NCBI GenBank assembly: GCA_963717465.1
Contig: OY970340.1
Coordinates: forward strand, 960,001 to 1,024,000
Source: Candidatus Bathyarchaeota archaeon
Lineage (GTDB): Archaea > Thermoproteota > Bathyarchaeia > Bathyarchaeales > Bathycorpusculaceae
Reading direction: 5' to 3'
DNA: 64,000 bases
The notes under the pieces were generated by a model. It saw nothing but the letters and a program-made list of their open reading frames with translations, did no database searches and was not told where the DNA came from. This document shows positions 14,384-58,848 of the stretch, piece after piece (the stretch's first letter is position 1; each line of letters opens with the position of its first letter). The position numbers and the translations under genes are program-made.

Positions 14384-15618
14384 TCCTGTTTTCCCCCGTT
14401 GATAATGTTGAGATAGCGCTTTTTAACTTCTTTCAGACGCGACTCTGCTTCTTCAGCCGAATCAGTCTTGGAGGCGATGAGTGCAAAGGATTTTGAATCG
14501 CAAACTGGAAACGGCGGCGAAACAACTTCATTCATATGAAAAGTCTTCAAGAGAACATCAAGCGTCGGTTTTACAGTTTCTATTTTCGAAAAACAAGCAC
14601 ACCCTTGGCATCCAATCTCTTTGGGCAACTCGCTTTTCGGAACAGCATCCAATAACGCTTGAGCAACGTTAAACTTGGCAACCCTGCTCAGACCAACGTA
14701 GGAAGTCGTTAACCTGGGATTAACATCCACAACTACAGGCTCCTTCTCTGTCAAGATTAAGTCAACCCCAAAATACCCTCTTAAGCCTGGGAAAATCCCC
14801 GCGATTTTTTCTGCTATTGCGAATGCTTCTTGTTTTTGTGGATGAACAAGCGGAACTGTTCCGCCATTATAATTTGAAACTTCATCAGAATACCCCAAAG
14901 TTATATCTTGACTGTTTAAACTCAGTGGTAACGCTTTTTTCTCTGTTGCAATTAAGCTTACGCTCACTGCTTTACCCTTAATTAGCTCTTGTATTACGAA
15001 CTGTCTGCCAGAAGATTCAACTTTTATCTTCTTTATAGCTTTAGGTATTTGAGCGTCTTTTTCGACAACGCTTAATCCTCCGCAGCTCACCCCATCCAAC
15101 GGCTTAAAAATAACCGGGTAGTCAAACATGCTTTTCATGTGTGTTTTAATTTTTTCTAAATCATCAAGAACATTGCATGTTATTGTTTGGGGTGTTGGCA
15201 CACCTGCTTTTTCTAAGGTTTCATATAGAACGGCTTTGTTGGCAACTTTTTGAATAACGCTGCTTTGGCAGTTAAGCGATGCTACGCCGGAGTGCTCAAC
15301 GGTTTCGATAATTGATTTTAATGTTTGAGCCGTTTCAGGTGCAATCACGTAAGCAGCATCAGAGGCACTGAGGGCTTTTGCGAAGGCTTCTCGCGCAAAT
15401 TGAGAAGGAGGAAACTGGTATTATGCATTCAACGTCTAATAAAGGATTAAACTGTGAAATTCTTGAGTCAAGCAAAATCGTGACTTTGTGCCCTGCACCT
15501 TTAAGGTCGGAAACTAGGGTTCTTAGCATGCCGTATCCTTCACTTAGAACACTTGGTGGAATCGGCTTTGGCCTGCAAATCCACCTCCGCTGGCGTGCTC
15601 GTAAACCAGAAGCCTCAA
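14377..15618 (-). CDS. mfnD: ATP-grasp tyramine--L-glutamate ligase, frameshifted N-terminus
   Basis: N-terminal LLVYEHASGG and EGYGML; IAPE, KPLDGVSCGG, GYFGVD, VNPRLTTSY. Confidence 0.85.
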
Positions 15619-36105: not shown

Positions 36106-36972
36106 ATGAGTAAGCTTGTTGGCTTCGTCCGGTTAATGCGTCCTATTAACGGTTTGATGATGGGTTTTGCCGTTTTAGTAGGCGCGATACTGGCCACGCG
36201 AGCAAACGTCTATTTGTTTCAAAGTAACCTGCCAAGTTTACTTTATGGTTACTTAACTGGTTTCTTTCTAACTGCTTCTTCAATGGTGATTAATGATTAT
36301 TATGACCGAAAAATCGACGCTATAAATGAGCCTGCTCGTCCAATTGCAAGCGGCACAGTTAAACCGCTAGAGGCACTTGTGTTCGCTTCTGCTCTAGCAA
36401 TAATTGGTCTCTTTTTCGCTTACAGTTCTAATAGTTCAAGCGTTCTCTGTCTCATGATTGGGATAATTGCATGGTTAATAACTGTTGGTTATGCGACGGT
36501 GGGAAAACGTGCTGGTTTACCCGGAAACTTCTTGGTCAGCGCCTGTGTAGCGACCCCATTCATTTTCGGCAGTGTAGTCGTTACAAACACAGTCCAATTG
36601 AACGTTTTACTTTTCGCTTTAATGGCGTTTCTCTCCAACACAGGCAGAGAAATCACAAAAGGCATCGTAGATGTCAAAGGCGACAGTGCAGAAGGCATAA
36701 AAACTCTAGCCGTACGCTATGGAGAAAAAAAAGCCGCAATCGCCTCAGCAGCATTTTACATTTCAGCCGTCGCATTAACGCCTATACCCGTGATCCTTGG
36801 TGTTGTTTCATTCTGGTTTATACCCTTCGTGTTAGTCACCGACATAGGATTAGTTGTTTGTTCAGCAACCTTGCTCAAAGATTATTCAAGGGAAAACGCC
36901 AGAAAAGTGAAAAAGCTCGTTCTGATATTCTTTATGTTCGCTTTACTAGCATACATTTTAGGGGCCCTATGA
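36106..36972 (+). CDS. Digeranylgeranylglyceryl phosphate synthase (UbiA family)
   Basis: MRPIN, NDYYDRKIDAINEPARP, REITKGIVDVKGD..G..TL. Confidence 0.85.
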   Translation: MSKLVGFVRLMRPINGLMMGFAVLVGAILATRANVYLFQSNLPSLLYGYLTGFFLTASSMVINDYYDRKIDAINEPARPIASGTVKPLEALVFASALAIIGLFFAYSSNSSSVLCLMIGIIAWLITVGYATVGKRAGLPGNFLVSACVATPFIFGSVVVTNTVQLNVLLFALMAFLSNTGREITKGIVDVKGDSAEGIKTLAVRYGEKKAAIASAAFYISAVALTPIPVILGVVSFWFIPFVLVTDIGLVVCSATLLKDYSRENARKVKKLVLIFFMFALLAYILGAL

Positions 36973-37052
36973 AATCATCTCGTCTTTATTGAATGCTTTT
37001 ATTTTCGACTACGCTTTAGTATTTTTGCCGGATGATGAGAAGGCATTAGCTT

Positions 37053-37092
37053 GACGTTCGCGGATGAAAGTTCAGAGTTACTCAGACGGCAA
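37053..37092. repeat. Repeat A1 (40 bp; last 21 bp identical to A2)
   Basis: gacgtt-N13-tcagagttactcagacggcaa, colinear with 39414..39453. Confidence 0.85.
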
Positions 37093-37196
37093 CGTACGAC
37101 TAACTCTGCATCTTTATCGCTAGTTTTTAGCAAACCGTCATCGATGTAGATCTTGACATTTCGTCTTGCTTCCTCAATCCGTTCCTTTTCTATCAT
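37093..37196 (-). pseudogene. Truncated HEPN-like partner of the nucleotidyltransferase
   Basis: ATGA overlap with the MNT stop; about 33 codons (MIEKERIEEARRNVKIYIDDGLL..) then reads into repeat A1. Confidence 0.5.
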
Positions 37197-37810
37197 AAAA
37201 TCTCCTCCAACATTTTAAAAAGCATCTCCGCACCATATTGAACGATTCGATTGTCTATTGCCTCCCATGCAACATTAGGCTTTTTCTGTTTAAGAAGCTC
37301 CGAAAACTCCTCTGTAGTTAATATCGTCTCGTGGATCCCCAGAGGGCTAACACGCTGGACAGATGCAATAGCCGCTTCAACTTCATTTTGAAATTTGCGC
37401 TCAGGAATAACCAAGAGAACATCTAAATCTGATCTTGCCGAGGCTGTGCCCTTCCCGTGGGAGCCGAACAGCATGAGTGTAAAGAAGGGCAAAGTAATTT
37501 TTGAAGTTAAATCTTTGGCAAGGATTTCTATGTCTTTGTGTTTTTCGAAGAAGCGGCTGGCTCGTATGCCCTCTATGTATGCAAGAAGAGAAGAGTTACC
37601 TCGTAAGTTCAGTCTGCAGTAAGTTACTGGAGGTCTTTTCTCGGCAGTAATATAGTGCTGTTCTGCCAGGCGCTTGATCATGGTGTGAGTAATTTTGTAA
37701 TCCTTTCCTATTCCCTCTGATATCTTTCGCACGGTAAAGCTTTCCCGAATTCTTGAGCTGAGAAAAGAAAGAATTTCGACTGATGTCTTATTCAAGGGTT
37801 CTAAGTACAT
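37193..37810 (-). CDS. wHTH + minimal nucleotidyltransferase (MNT antitoxin-like)
   Basis: N-terminal HTH-like region; LFGSHGKG..SDLDVL. Confidence 0.85.
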   Translation of the reverse strand: MYLEPLNKTSVEILSFLSSRIRESFTVRKISEGIGKDYKITHTMIKRLAEQHYITAEKRPPVTYCRLNLRGNSSLLAYIEGIRASRFFEKHKDIEILAKDLTSKITLPFFTLMLFGSHGKGTASARSDLDVLLVIPERKFQNEVEAAIASVQRVSPLGIHETILTTEEFSELLKQKKPNVAWEAIDNRIVQYGAEMLFKMLEEIL

Positions 37811-37833
37811 AATATTATGTACCTAAGTACTTA
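37805..37833. promoter_or_regulatory. Palindromic operator candidate over the MNT start
   Basis: Perfect 18-bp palindrome gtacataatattatgtac (37805-37822) plus taagtactta (37824-37833). Confidence 0.55.
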
Positions 37834-38030
37834 ACCTATAAATCTTGCAACCGACAGCGAAGCTCTTCTCAGAGTCGTGCACGCTCGTCCTTCCGCTGTT
37901 TCTAAAGCAGCATACTAACCCAACCTTTCGTATCACAAAGTCGCAGATTATGAGACTTTATGATATGAATCACAATATCAAACTTGATGCAGGTGTGTCA
38001 GCTATCCCTCTCCCTTAAATAACAAGAACA

Positions 38031-38060
38031 GAAGCATGAAACTTTGCACTTACCTGCTTC
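38031..38060. repeat. Repeat B1: 11-bp arm / ctttgcac / 11-bp inverted arm
   Basis: gaagcatgaaa ctttgcac ttacctgcttc; arms 9/11 complementary; 16-bp core identical at 39253-39268. Confidence 0.8.
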
Positions 38061-38415
38061 TATATTTGCAAAGATACGGGAATCATGCTCTGGCTCAAAG
38101 AATCGGTTTTATCATAGCTTAAATCCGAACGTAAAAAGACACAGGTAGACTAGAAACTTATCGACGACGTCTTGTCGTCAACGAGCTCTAACGTTTTCCC
38201 ATTAGATCGCGCTAAAGGAAGGAAAGCTATCGAAAAAACGCGGAATTATCAACAATGCAGAACCGCTTGAAATATGAATTCTCTGAGGAGACAGATAATT
38301 GCTAAAGATAACCAAACATGACCTCCAAATTTGGGCAGATGAACAAGAACTCTCAGATACGTTATTTGCAGAATTGGACCATCGTTTGGTCAAAATATTG
38401 GATGCGAATAACTCC

Positions 38416-38889
38416 CTATCCTTTGAGTATTTTCAGGCATACTTTCTCTTCTATCCAGAAGCCTTGATCGACAAGTTGTTGAACCAAATCTTCAGGTGAC
38501 TGCTTGATCAATCTCAGGTCCAAGAAAGCCTTAAGCAAAGCTATCGTTCCCATCACCTTAATTTTCAGCCTTCCTGCCGTTTTTCGGGCTTTCAAATCAT
38601 CAAGCAACGCCATATCAGTTTTGAACTCAAGTGCCAGCGTCATCGTTTCTATCTCGCCTTTTCCCAAGCTTGACGAGAGCAGATTAAGAAGTTCAGTGTT
38701 TGAGCATTTCACCACTTCAACGAATCCTTCGTCGCTTAGTACGTGGATTTGCGTTACCGCTTCATCTTTGCTCACTTCTTCAAAAACTGATTGAGGTACA
38801 TACACCTTATCGAATACTTCTTTTAGAAAGGGAAGATAGCCAAGTTTACCTAAAGCTAGTAAAACTGAGCTGTCTATTGTCGCTTTCAA
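38416..38889 (-). CDS. PIN-domain protein (DUF3368 type), putative toxin
   Basis: IDSSVL, VPQSVFEE, LGKGEIE, LLDDLKARK, MGTIALL. Confidence 0.85.
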   Translation of the reverse strand: MKATIDSSVLLALGKLGYLPFLKEVFDKVYVPQSVFEEVSKDEAVTQIHVLSDEGFVEVVKCSNTELLNLLSSSLGKGEIETMTLALEFKTDMALLDDLKARKTAGRLKIKVMGTIALLKAFLDLRLIKQSPEDLVQQLVDQGFWIEEKVCLKILKG

Positions 38890-39143
38890 TTATGACGCTT
38901 CTTGAGTAAGTTCTTGCTTGCTTGCAATTCTTTCTGCAACTCCGCTTCATCCAGAAAAGTGTACTTAAAACCTACTGTTCGAAGCAACGCTGAAAATTCG
39001 GGGCGGGACATACCCATAACTTCAGCTGCCTTTGCCAAGGTAACAGTTCGCGAAGCAAGGAGCCCGAGGACAAGAAGAAAGCGCTCTTTTTCCTCTCTTT
39101 CGGTAAACAAAGGAAACTCGTCTATAACACTCTCTATCGACAT
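38886..39143 (-). CDS. UPF0175-family HTH antitoxin
   Basis: VTLAKAAEVMGMSRPEF..LL; overlaps the PIN gene start. Confidence 0.8.
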   Translation of the reverse strand: MSIESVIDEFPLFTEREEKERFLLVLGLLASRTVTLAKAAEVMGMSRPEFSALLRTVGFKYTFLDEAELQKELQASKNLLKKRHN

Positions 39144-39245
39144 TTTCAACACGCAAATGATAGTTGATTAATTGGAAATTTAACTGTTTTCATAGCTCGA
39201 TAATTCGCTTCGACTAGAAAGTTTTAGTGCAAGATAAGCAATGGC

Positions 39246-39275
39246 AAAACACGAAACTTTGCACTTACATCCTTT
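39246..39275. repeat. Repeat B2
   Basis: aaaacacgaaa ctttgcac ttacatccttt; same spacer and orientation as B1. Confidence 0.8.
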
Positions 39276-39413
39276 TTTCTGAAGGCCAGACCCAAATCGC
39301 AGCTAGGAGCCGCAAGCTTAAGGGGGGATACATTTATATATTGAGGCTTGTGCGGAAAAGCTCTACCTGAAGCGTTAAAGCAAGCTTGGAATCGCTAGAT
39401 TTAGCGTTGTACA

Positions 39414-39453
39414 GACGTTAACGTGCGTACAATCAGAGTTACTCAGACGGCAA
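39414..39453. repeat. Repeat A2
   Basis: gacgttaacgtgcgtacaa tcagagttactcagacggcaa. Confidence 0.85.
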
Positions 39454-39527
39454 ACAACTAAATAATTGGAGAAGGACTCGGTTAAACTTGATTAATCTAA
39501 GCATTTTGAGTCTTTGTTGCTTATTAG

Positions 39528-41021
39528 CTAGGTAATTTGTCCATATTTTTTAGGAAGACTAGCTATTTGGACTTTGTTTTGTTCTATGAAATCTTTCAGC
39601 TTTGCCTTAGTTTTTTCATTGTTTTCAACAATATTTGTGGCTTCTTCGACTAGAACATAATTTGATTGAGCATATTTCTCAAGAGAGTCCTTAATTTCGT
39701 TGGCTTTCTTCTCAACGATTGCAGCGTCATTTCCCGTATTGGTTGATATTTTTGATACTTCCTTAACATCGTTAACAACATTCTCAATTAATTTCTTAAC
39801 ATCATTGGCAATAACTGCAACCTCTTCAGCGATTTTTTCGAGTTCCTGTGCTCCAGCAGTCTGCTGTTCAACCGAAGCAGAAACTTCTTCTGAAGCGGAA
39901 GAACTCTCTTCAGCAATACTAGCAACTTCAGATATAGTGTTAGCAACATTGTCTAACGAGTTAAGACCACGTTTAACGCCACTCGCTAAGTTACTCACTT
40001 TGTAAGTCATTGTAGCCATAATATTAGTAATGCCCTCAGCTTCTTTAATAGCATCCAAAACCACATTGGTTCCTTCTGCCGCGTTCTTATGAGACTGATT
40101 TGCAATAGCATTCGTCTGGGTACCAGCATCCTTAATACCCTTCACCAAAGTAATAGCAGAACCAGCAGCAACCTTAGATTGACCAGCCAAGCTCTTAACA
40201 GCATCAGCAACAACCGCAAAACCCCTGCCAGCTTCACCAGCCCTAGCCGCCTCAATAGCAGCGTTCAAAGCCAACATGTTTGTTTGCCCAGCAATGTCTG
40301 AAACTGAATTAGCCATCTGTCCAACCTGCTCTACACTATCAACCATGGATATGACAGCTTCAGAAACTTTGGTGATGTTAGCCTTGATATCTTCAATAGC
40401 ATGAAGTCCTTGTTGCCCTTTTTCATTAGCTTGTTTGGACTTTGTCAAAGCTTGGGTAGTAACAGTGAGAGCTTCCTTTGCTATGCCACCCGCTTCATCC
40501 ATAACTTTTTTTAAGGATTCAGTGTTTTTTGCTGCTTCCTGTGAAAGCTCAGCTAACTTTTGCGCTCCAGTAGAGACCTGTTTCGAAGCAGTGTTAACCT
40601 GCTCCATTCCAAGAGCCATCTGTTTAGATGTTTCTTCCACTTGCTTGCCCATATTCTCAACACTAACACCAGCCTTTGAAACATCTTCTGCACTTACTAA
40701 GGCTTTTTCGGCAAAGTTGCCAGATTCCTTAGTTGAAGTTGCTAATTTTGAAACTATTGTTGATGTGTCAAGTATAAGTTCACTATTAGTAGCAAGTATT
40801 GTGCTATCTTCCATGATTTGATTATTAACTTTTTTAGCTGAGTTAATAGTGCTATCATTTAAATTGATTGTTTCCTCAGCGATTTGAATTTCTTCTTCAA
40901 GTTTTTTAGCATACATTTGTAATATCTCTTGGTTTTGAGATCGAAGCTTCTTATTTTCTTCTTCTCTCTGTTCAACCTGTTTCTCAAGTTCTTTTATTCT
41001 TTCTTGATTCTCAATTGGCAT
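39528..41021 (-). CDS. Soluble methyl-accepting chemotaxis protein
   Basis: [30 protein letters not shown]; no TM segment. Confidence 0.9.
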
Positions 41022-56392: not shown

Positions 56393-56605
56393 CTTGTTTC
56401 TTCTCCTATCCTATTGAAGAAAATGTTACGCTGTTTAATGCCTTTTAAACTATCATTAAAGCGACAGGTGAAAGCAGAAGAGAGTGCGGTTAAAGTGAAT
56501 TAAAATTTAATCAAACCAGCCCAAACCAGCCCAGCGATTTCAGGGTTTTTTTGTTCGATTGTTAAAATGAAAGTTCTTAATAATATATGGAATTATTATT
56601 ATATT

Positions 56606-57616
56606 ATGAGTAGATTTGTTGATTATGCTAAACTTGTTAGACCGTATGGTTTGCTGTTTTTAGGTTTCACTCCTTTTTTCGGAGCAGTTTGCAATGGAGA
56701 AAAAGATTTCTTTAGTCTGTTTTTATTGGTTTTAATCGGCGTTTCGATCCACATATTTACTTTTGTGCAGAATGATTATTTTGATTTAGAAATCGATAGA
56801 AAATCACCACACGTTCTTGATAGACCTCTTGTAACTGGCAGGATAAAAATGAAAACGGCTTTGTCCATGGTGATTATAGCATTTTTATTCTCTATCATTA
56901 TCAATTTGTTGTTTTTATTTACTGTTCTGTCTTTTTCGATGCTATTGCTCTCTTTCCTTTTAATAACACTTTATAACAAGTATAGTAAGCGTTATTTCGG
57001 CATGGAATATGTTCTTGCGGCAGGTGTTTTTACAACCGGTTTATTTGGCGCTTACAGCGTTTCAACTGATATATCTAGTTTGGCAATCATAGTGTGCCTT
57101 GTTTGTATGATGCAATGGATTTTTAGTGTCGGCGTTTTTGCAAATCTGAAAGACGTAAAATACGATGTTAAAATGGGCGTCAAGACTACGCCAACGGTTC
57201 TCGGTGTAAAAGTAGTAAATGAGGATTTCAGTATGCCTTCATTATTTGTTGGCTATGCTTTTTTTATTAAAATCCTCCACATATTCATTGCTTTTCTTCC
57301 TATTTTACTGGGATATACTGCGGTGTTTATTTTCGATTTGCCGATACCGTTTTTGTTTTTCGTCTTGCTTTCAGCAGCAGTTTTATATCTTGTTGCAAAA
57401 ATCTTATCAACGCCGCTGTCCAAAAGAGACAGAATGCTTGTTTATGATGGAGTCCAGGAAGGACTATCTTTTTTGTTAATTCCAGTGGTTATCATGAGCT
57501 TTCTGATTGAGAATATAGGTGTAGTCGCAACGGTTTTAATAATAATTTTGATGATTGTATGGCCTATATTATCCTTAAGATTAGTTTTTGGTAAAAAATT
57601 AATCCCACTAGAATAG
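56606..57616 (+). CDS. UbiA-family prenyltransferase
   Basis: LVRPY, NDYFDLEID..DRPL, LYN, LKDVKYD..G.KT. Confidence 0.85.
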   Translation: MSRFVDYAKLVRPYGLLFLGFTPFFGAVCNGEKDFFSLFLLVLIGVSIHIFTFVQNDYFDLEIDRKSPHVLDRPLVTGRIKMKTALSMVIIAFLFSIIINLLFLFTVLSFSMLLLSFLLITLYNKYSKRYFGMEYVLAAGVFTTGLFGAYSVSTDISSLAIIVCLVCMMQWIFSVGVFANLKDVKYDVKMGVKTTPTVLGVKVVNEDFSMPSLFVGYAFFIKILHIFIAFLPILLGYTAVFIFDLPIPFLFFVLLSAAVLYLVAKILSTPLSKRDRMLVYDGVQEGLSFLLIPVVIMSFLIENIGVVATVLIIILMIVWPILSLRLVFGKKLIPLE

Positions 57617-57683
57617 AGCAGATCTAAAATCCGACAGCAATTTTAAAAAAGTAAAAAGGGAAAAAGGCTCGATTATGCAACCA

Positions 57684-57880
57684 CTAAGAGCCATCTTGCT
57701 TAAGATACTTAGCTAACAGTAACGCTTCTTCGCTAATCAACATCTCAAACTCTTGTCTCTTTCCATGCCTAATTCTTGGTATCTCCACATATTCATCAAA
57801 CAGCCTATCCAATGCAACCATGAAATTCTTAGTTTCCGTATCACTAAGGTACTCTCTTTTCCCAATTTTACCCTTGACAA
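57684..57880 (-). pseudogene. cas1: Probable C-terminal remnant of a solo Cas1-family protein
   Basis: GKREYL.D.ET..F...L..LF...VEIPRIRHGKRQEFE.LI.EEALLLAKYL matches my recollection of archaeal solo Cas1 C-termini; no N-terminus present. Confidence 0.55.
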
Positions 57881-58028
57881 GCACGTTAACGTCAAGTTAA
57901 GCTTACTCACGCTTACTATGGTAAATAAAGTGTTCTCCCTTAGTCATGGCTTCAAGTTTAGCTAATCTTTAAAGCTAAACTCTTTACTCAGAAGCCGCCT
58001 GTCTGATACAACATGAAACTTTGACTGG

Positions 58029-58769
58029 CTAGTGTGAATAAAGTTTTGCGTAAGGTCTACTTGATATTGGCAGAACCTTTTTGAATTTAGCTTTCAAGAT
58101 TTCGTTGGCGTCCATATTGAAATAACCGCAGTATTCCTTTACTAATTCTTCTATCATGCGGAGGTCGCGTTTGTTTACGTCTGAGATTTTTGTGCCGTTT
58201 TCTGTTGTGAGGATGTCGCCGCGTTCGTAGATTACTCCACCGTGCATTCCTGTTCCAACGAATCGTGCGTTGCAACGTTCGCCTTCTTTTAGGTTTAAGC
58301 CTAAGAGCAGTATAATGCCGCCTGCCATGTATTCAGCTAAGAAGTCTCCTGCTGTTTGGCCGATGATTATTTTTGGGATTTTCTTTTTGTATTCTTTCAT
58401 GTGTATGCCTACTCTGCAGCCGACGTAGTCTTTGACGAAAACTTTTCCGCCACGCATCGAATGCCCTGTTACGTCTCCTGCATGTCCATGAATGATTATT
58501 TTGCCTTCATCCATCGTATTACCGCAGCCATCTTGAGCACTACCATGAATAACCAACGTAGGTCCACTCATGAAAGCAGCCAAATCATTTCCAGGCGTCC
58601 CATGAACATCTATCTGCACCGTAGAATGCAAATCAGTTCCAAGATATCTTTGACCGATAACATTTTGGATATCAATCTTCTCCACACTGTTTTCCTTTCC
58701 ATTCACGAGGGCTCGTAAGATTTGGTTTAAGTCTTTATAGTGCAAGCCGTCAGCGTCAATTTTTGCCAT
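58029..58769 (-). CDS. Glutamate synthase GXGXG (domain 3) subunit
   Basis: GQRYLG, GTPGNDL, MRGG, AEYMAGG, GTGMHGG. Confidence 0.9.
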   Translation of the reverse strand: MAKIDADGLHYKDLNQILRALVNGKENSVEKIDIQNVIGQRYLGTDLHSTVQIDVHGTPGNDLAAFMSGPTLVIHGSAQDGCGNTMDEGKIIIHGHAGDVTGHSMRGGKVFVKDYVGCRVGIHMKEYKKKIPKIIIGQTAGDFLAEYMAGGIILLLGLNLKEGERCNARFVGTGMHGGVIYERGDILTTENGTKISDVNKRDLRMIEELVKEYCGYFNMDANEILKAKFKKVLPISSRPYAKLYSH

Positions 58770-58848
58770 TTTTGCCTCTTTTTTCACCCTTGAAGTGAAC
58801 TTTGAATTGATTTCTATTGTTGATTTTTCTTGTTCAATCATACTCTTC

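Follow-up and report, generated by a model that had tools for sequence, protein, structure and literature searches.

Positions 57684 to 58025 of the window, as we call the whole 64,000-nucleotide stretch of DNA analysed here, raise two questions: what the short cas1-like reading frame found there descends from, and whether three short motifs around it tie it to an island at 37-39 kb. The original prediction answered both at once by deriving the island and the cas1 patch from one mobile-element family with a CRISPR-independent Cas1. The genome studied (3.05 Mb, one contig) is designated G000 below. Our comparisons indicate that positions 56499-57879 are very probably the right arm left behind by a Cas1 transposon that lacked PolB and is now dead; the element would have inserted carrying a UbiA-family gene and afterwards lost its left part by deletion.

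The gene fragment is delimited by homology to intact genes as follows.

57694..57879, minus strand: 3' remnant of a solo cas1 (casposase) gene, codons ~271-333 of 344

The 66-aa ORF from which the prediction started (57684-57884, minus strand) is a piece of this remnant with a premature stop, and its assignment to the Cas1 C-terminus was upheld: a search of longer proteins yielded 191 relatives out of 253 candidates, and PF01867 was present in 115 of the 120 homologues listed (best 77-78% identity, E 2e-24). The fragment alone found no Cas1 match in Pfam or NCBIfam scans because PF01867 ends at residue 282. At the DNA level the remnant is 81% identical over 187 bp to the intact gene of locus L027, and a comparison of 62 codons with the closest intact gene gave 33 identical, 15 synonymous and 14 non-synonymous codons. 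None of the four predicted catalytic residues of the intact protein is contained in it.

Surveying one genome per species, we identified 172 relatives; 78 loci were returned, almost all of them labelled as Bathyarchaeia, and two further loci bring the number examined here to 80. Around cas1 we ran an unbiased search for direct repeats (TSDs) enclosing inverted repeats (TIRs); it gave 29 calls, of which L056 was dropped as a run of N, and L024, being the same sequence as L027, was counted once. Such a structure was found in 28 of the 80 loci, with the two 13-mer copies identical in 27 of the 28; no TSD/TIR pair was found in the other 52, many of which are seemingly short or cut by contig ends. 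The duplicated target has as its core the 13-bp near-palindromic sequence RYTAAAWTTTARY, which can often be extended to 14-15 bp. Most TIRs have C as their first base and continue into CCCAAA or CT repeats. Intact elements measure 2.8-13.5 kb (median 5.9 kb), and cas1 points outward at a median of 1146 bp from the right end, and an ORF occupies the variable cargo slot after it in 22 of 28 elements. One locus has further repeats: at L024:4675-4832 and 15082-15239 a 158-bp inverted repeat (97% complementary) encloses a 5.3-kb Cas1 element together with the radical-SAM-like genes to either side of it, and a 20-bp tandem repeat occurs inside the element end (L024:13297-13510).

Full-length family Cas1 is 334-360 aa long, typically about 344 aa; all of five full-length proteins passed TIGR00287, and no CRISPR subtype model scored above its cut-off. 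Residues E162, H227, D239 and E242 are shared by at least 90% of the 22 full-length homologues aligned and, by alignment to solved Cas1 and by the account in PMC4046053, would be the catalytic ones. A simple finder detected no CRISPR array in any of the 80 family loci and none in G000, and in the 28 delimited elements no PolB, Cas2 or tyrosine integrase was identified among the 156 of 210 non-Cas1 ORFs scanned (the others being cluster mates of scanned ones). Since neither Cas2 nor an array accompanies it, this cas1 does not belong to a CRISPR-Cas adaptation module, in which cas2 and an array lie beside cas1. The prediction of a CRISPR-independent, casposon-like Cas1 is supported, with TIRs and TSDs but no array around the intact relatives. 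Of the features that the prediction proposed to look for around intact homologues, TIRs were present in the 28 delimited elements, but PolB and tyrosine integrases were absent from the ORFs scanned, and the search of family loci for the A and B motifs of the island was negative. A gene for a small DxD protein recurs instead in 24 of the 28 intact elements. Its structural model (pLDDT 86) resembles the polymerase of LigD (Z 6.7, rmsd 3.6, 115 aligned) and a PrimPol domain (Z 6.6); as these Z values of 6.6-6.7 are below the guide value of 8 and the best Foldseek E is 0.03, the protein can be called primase-polymerase-like only weakly.

Against this anatomy, the DNA downstream of the window remnant resolves into three further features.

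56499..56511, plus strand: TSD-type target-site 13-mer ATTAAAATTTAAT, which exactly matches the target duplicated by intact elements L025, L070 and L082 and marks the right end that survives here

56512..56535, plus strand: degenerate TIR with a C start and CCCAAA-like units, directly after the 13-mer as in intact elements

56567..57616, plus strand: ORF for a UbiA-family prenyltransferase of 349 aa (PF01040, E 4e-25), lying in the slot that separates cas1 from the right end

Scored with a weight matrix made from intact family ends, the end motif at 56499 reaches 23.4 bits, a score at which a Markov null gave 0 and 0 sites genome-wide, and it is the sole motif scoring above 10 within the 64-kb window. 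It faces the 3' end of cas1 at a distance of 1176 bp, as compared with the family median given above, and the order of end, UbiA ORF and cas1 tail is the layout of intact element L025. The TIR scores a modest 5.5 bits, so it is a decayed or variant one. What marks the family at this locus is thus its own signature at 56499, outside the patch of 57684-58025 in which cas1 had been thought to be flanked by the repeat family of the island. No left end or second TSD copy was detected by the end-motif scan of the 64-kb window; the insertion is therefore unbounded, and the 13-mer is not demonstrable here as a duplication. Nor was an empty insertion site present among the genus genomes compared.

The UbiA-like gene has a GC content of 33.6% (genome, 40.1%). 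Its DNA matched nothing in 60 genus genomes, nor did its protein have a counterpart at E<=1e-30 in 120 family genomes; from its low GC and the lack of close relatives in these genomes the gene looks foreign, and we infer that it was the cargo of the Cas1 element. The history that we propose runs as follows. An intact Cas1 of 344 aa would bind the TIRs of the element, which are short and of the simple-repeat kind, and integrate it at a near-palindromic site of the type described, duplicating about 13 bp (13-15), with the small primase-like protein as its usual partner in place of PolB. A UbiA-carrying element would have inserted at the palindromic site at 56499, and later deletions, in whatever order, may have taken away the left end together with the core genes and ~270 codons from the start of cas1. 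What stayed was the cargo gene, still intact, with the right end on one side of it and the cas1 tail on the other, possibly through selection on the cargo that spared the whole arm.

The window remnant is one of many. G000 holds 10 cas1 remnants and no intact cas1, and a PF01867 search of it gave no match above the Pfam cut-off. Outside this remnant set there is a sub-threshold PF01867 match at G000:C1:2204126-2204413 (E 1e-3). The same genome contains 30 distinct end sites of at least 23 bits, 15 of them two-sided, where the Markov null again gave 0 and 0. Of its seven C-terminal remnants, six have an inward-facing end no more than 5.5 kb downstream, as compared with 3.6% of random positions, and the seventh abuts an upstream end; none of the three internal remnants has one. 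At G000:C1:2450791-2450895 an end motif is joined directly to the last ~25 cas1 codons, the shortest possible tail. A profile search for remnants of element core genes in G000 found none that were significant, the families being divergent and the search weak.

In 61 genus genomes there were 100 cas1 matches, of which five near-full matches and 20 rows resembling other Cas1 families (open frame of at least 320 aa, at most 100 bits) were set aside before the 3' bias was counted among the 75 partial ones. Sixty-two of these 75 end at codon 333 or later and two include the first 110 codons, with a median start of cas1 remnants at codon 294; since the genus genomes are related, these and the following counts of remnants and ends are not independent samples. 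In the search profile, 30-aa windows from codons 200-230 score above the C-terminus, and the 3' bias of the remnants is therefore not a detection bias. A survey of 40 regions in 22 genomes covered most of the 55 C-terminal rows outside G000. Among the 43 C-terminal remnants of these 22 other genomes, an end lay downstream in 23, upstream in eight and on both sides in five; in 20 of the 43 no downstream end was detectable. A strict end-motif pattern run on the 61 genomes was too narrow (8 genomes matched, as compared with 4 for the control).

That G000 has 30 end sites, half of them two-sided, and no intact cas1 of its own raises a possibility that we regard as tentative, namely that cassettes composed of an end, a cas1 tail, cargo and a second end were moved in trans by an intact Cas1 arriving from elsewhere and stacked at the palindromic site in the manner of an integron. 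Two G000 units with a cas1 tail fit such cassettes in having the same 13-mer at both boundaries (units of 4574 and 4948 bp, one of them with a rare variant), and in three cases no more than 200 bp separate a left end from a cas1 tail. The genes carried in G000 units (49 of 78 ORFs scanned) are metabolic, regulatory and restriction-modification genes, and include a restriction-modification fusion, dehydrogenases, methyltransferases and transporters. However, the TIR pairs of the G000 units have diverged, no identical cassette was seen at two loci, decay in place would give the same pattern, and only five of the 43 remnants elsewhere have both ends within 5.5 kb. Were the cassette account correct, the copy in the window would represent such a unit after subsequent loss of the left end, which is not exclusive with its being the right arm of a dead transposon, the reading that we prefer.

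Two regions of G000 deserve description in their own right. A 4.6-kb unit at G000:C1:1139074-1143648 lies between identical 13-mers and contains a gene for a 983-aa restriction-modification fusion and a cas1 tail. At G000:C1:1937600-1956737 there are seven end sites in 20 kb, several of them two-sided, forming an array without cas1, whose cassettes contain ABC transporter, Usp, methyltransferase and cupin genes.

It is also conceivable, although improbable, that the cas1 tail was kept for a function of its own, as a terminator for the convergent UbiA gene, as a promoter, or as a small inhibitory peptide or antisense RNA directed against incoming elements. The strong 3' bias, the distance of 59 bp between the tail and the UbiA stop, and the frame remaining open over 62 codons would all agree with such a role. 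However, the ORF next to a remnant is convergent with it in 29 of 50 cases and co-directional in 21, so that no single role fits, many cas1 remnants carry stops, there is no intact start, and half of the changed codons are non-synonymous. As an account of the 3' bias, a terminator alone is ruled out by the same split in orientation. A look-up of sequencing runs for 56400-58100 returned none, a result that carries no information on expression. Retention of the tail as part of a right arm thus remains our preferred reading.

On its other side the remnant ends in a junction, beyond which the host flank begins.

57880..57919, no strand: 40-bp deletion junction, outside both the cas1 and the glycosyltransferase homologies, containing a 13-mer at 57881-57893

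57920..58013, minus strand: frameshifted partial copy of a family-2 glycosyltransferase gene (3' coding end), containing a 9-mer at 57984-57992

58012..58023, plus strand: 12-mer equal to part of island repeat B1 (38035-38046), with 3 genome copies

58029..58841, minus strand: host gene with a GXGXG glutamate-synthase domain (PF01493), the far flank

The three strings on which the link to the island was built are all where the prediction had placed them. The 13-mer is the reverse complement of 39414-39426, occurs in 2 copies in the 3.05-Mb genome, and was correctly said to sit at the break of the fragment, as DNA homology to the closest intact cas1 ends at 57879. The 12-mer likewise matches its island counterpart as claimed and terminates 5 bp short of the stop codon of the GXGXG gene at 58029. 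The 9-mer, read as the start of the right arm of repeat A, does recur at 37078 and 39439, but it is a common string (23 copies genome-wide) and lies within a 95-bp piece of which 88 bases (93%) are identical to G000:C1:1788366-1788460, inside a PF00535 ORF. That source copy lies 770 kb from the junction and differs at the position of the 9-mer. The sequence at 57920-58013 is native coding sequence, since a homologous C-terminus is present in an ORF of genome G047. Like the cas1 remnant, this glycosyltransferase copy keeps its 3' end only. The GXGXG gene is conserved across the genus, and its downstream neighbours differ among the 11 loci compared.

The island and the Cas1 patch might nevertheless be of one family, or the junction might have been patched with short templates copied from the island. 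What makes this worth weighing is that the 13-mer and the 12-mer fill two otherwise unexplained gaps at the junction and form the sole such cluster in the genome, that the 13-mer overlaps an arm conserved in the attR copies of relatives, and that the junction also holds a 95-bp piece whose source is 770 kb distant. However, neither the 13-mer nor the 12-mer occurs in 81 family loci (1.24 Mb), nor does the 21-bp A repeat with 3 mismatches allowed, and both gaps have equal or longer matches elsewhere: the 40-bp junction has seven exact matches of at least 12 bases elsewhere in the genome (two of them 13-mers, one being the island copy), and the gap holding the 12-mer has a longer 13-mer match. 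The 9-mer, explained as glycosyltransferase coding sequence, is at background level in the 81 loci (12 copies, 9.4 expected), and the 37-39 kb island lacks the family end motif and had no blastn match to 104 loci. With the whole island as the source, the genome has 105 cases of two matches of at least 12 bases within 145 bp, or 2.2 per 64 kb; with the A and B motifs alone, the cluster in the window is the single one. For the latter, the null gives 0.64 clusters per genome on average; of 3000 random motif sets, 1.9% yield a cluster within 32 kb, and the chance for a pre-chosen patch of 342 bp is about 1e-4, so that the cluster is mildly unusual (about 2% per window) and alone no proof of a link. 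Five further copies of the 9-mer lie 0.6-1.1 kb apart at G000:C1:1808453-1811903, just past the 16S rRNA gene, in an apparently repetitive region. A common family or island-derived patch is thus very unlikely in our view, and the family link is largely refuted, the more so as repeat A has an explanation of its own, being the end of an sRNA that is associated with tyrosine integrases in relatives.

37025..37092, plus strand: box C/D-type sRNA gene (A1), conserved and separate from the Cas1 element

37193..39152, minus strand: island cargo, comprising a nucleotidyltransferase gene and a PIN/DUF3368 and UPF0175 pair (Pfam matches)

39414..39453, plus strand: duplicate of the sRNA 3' end with a conserved arm (A2), an attR-like island end with a 21-bp exact repeat of 37072-37092

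Positions 36990-37092 are matched in 50 of 60 genus genomes, and a terminal stem and boxes C, D', C' and D are conserved in 16 aligned relatives. The D guide is a perfect 12-nt complement of 23S rRNA and the D' guide an 8-nt complement 29 nt further on, the 23S rRNA gene of G000 having been located by motifs typical of such genes. Box D reads CAGA (canonical, CTGA), and Rfam gave no credible match in 36900-39600, box C/D-type sRNA included; the gene nonetheless fits a box C/D sRNA predicted to guide two neighbouring 23S sites. Archaeal box C/D guide sRNAs can serve as attB of tyrosine-integrase elements. Repeat A, which is the 3' end of the sRNA with a duplicate at 39433, resembles these systems in its boxes, its stem, its two 23S guides, the duplicated 3' end and the integrase found in relatives. 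Similar distal copies of the 3' end occur in 7 of 60 genus genomes, and in two of the seven relatives' islands read (G012 and G002) a PF00589 tyrosine integrase ORF lies directly behind the sRNA, one match being just above and one just below the Pfam cut-off. These sRNA-inserted islands are about 14 kb long in G012 and 30 kb in G002. The G000 island, in which no integrase gene is left, is unrelated to the Cas1 element; it appears to be a separate integrase-type insertion in a C/D sRNA gene, with A as an att-like site. The two copies of repeat B (38032-38059 and 39247-39274) are identical at 24 of 28 positions, each lies upstream of a gene pair that we take to be toxin-antitoxin-like, as we do the PIN/DUF3368 and UPF0175 pair of the cargo, and B has no match in the relatives searched.

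Although the window locus is a dead fragment, it gives entry to a barely described family of PolB-less Cas1 transposons, whose palindromic target, short TIRs and intact relatives bear on the site choice of casposases and on the origin of CRISPR arrays. Tails of cas1 can be misannotated as CRISPR cas1; the 3'-biased tails and the end motifs can serve as flags for horizontally gained genes in Bathyarchaeia genomes. It is also possible, if rather doubtful, that a genome-wide cassette system exists in this genus, in which cas1-less units with a palindromic site and simple-repeat TIRs are moved in trans and stacked into arrays. If so, metabolic and defence genes would stay behind, each marked by a cas1 tail, and the system would be a Cas1-driven analogue of integrons and a natural halfway state between the target duplication of casposons and the repeat array of CRISPR.

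Casposons have been defined by the joint presence of Cas1 and PolB, and tandem insertions sharing a TSD, solo TIRs and remnants are already known among them (PMC4046053, PMC4779613, as far as their available text extends). On that same text, the Bathyarchaeia family resembles casposon families 1-4 in its CRISPR-independent Cas1, its TIRs and a TSD of similar length (14 bp in M. mazei), but differs from them in lacking PolB, in its smaller size and simple-repeat TIRs, in its near-palindromic, AT-rich intergenic target, and in the primase-like gene of 24 of 28 elements. Cas1-solo group 1 of the Methanomicrobiales, with an incomplete catalytic set and no mobility in the available account (PMC4046053), likewise has no cas genes or array nearby; the Bathyarchaeia family, unlike that group, keeps the catalytic residues and is flanked by TSDs and TIRs. 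The closest counterpart is the proposed 'family 5' of casposases, in which PolB is mostly absent and which the available part of the paper places near the Cas1 of CRISPR type I-A (Salgado et al. 2022, PMC9755687). As described there, family 5 shares with ours a solo Cas1 of ~345 aa with catalytic residues and no C-terminal HTH, TIRs and, mostly, no PolB. The Bathyarchaeia family shows the same traits, having no PolB, conserved catalytic residues and a length of 334-360 aa, which is too short for an HTH domain. By eye, rows Cas1_938, _1200, _1219 and _1269 of the supplement have the same N- and C-terminal motifs, and the window fragment is identical to Cas1_1200 at 32 of 60 residues (ungapped, also counted by eye), so that the Bathyarchaeia family seems to match the family 5 type of casposon. 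The window copy, unlike family 5 casposases, is dead. The available account of family 5 concerns six sequences and, in the portion seen, mentions neither Bathyarchaeia nor a target-site consensus, cargo slot, arrays or remnants, and a literature search that mostly excluded subscription papers returned no description of these Bathyarchaeia remnants or arrays. What we add to the known systems is a counted 3' bias of cas1 remnants and the density of end sites.
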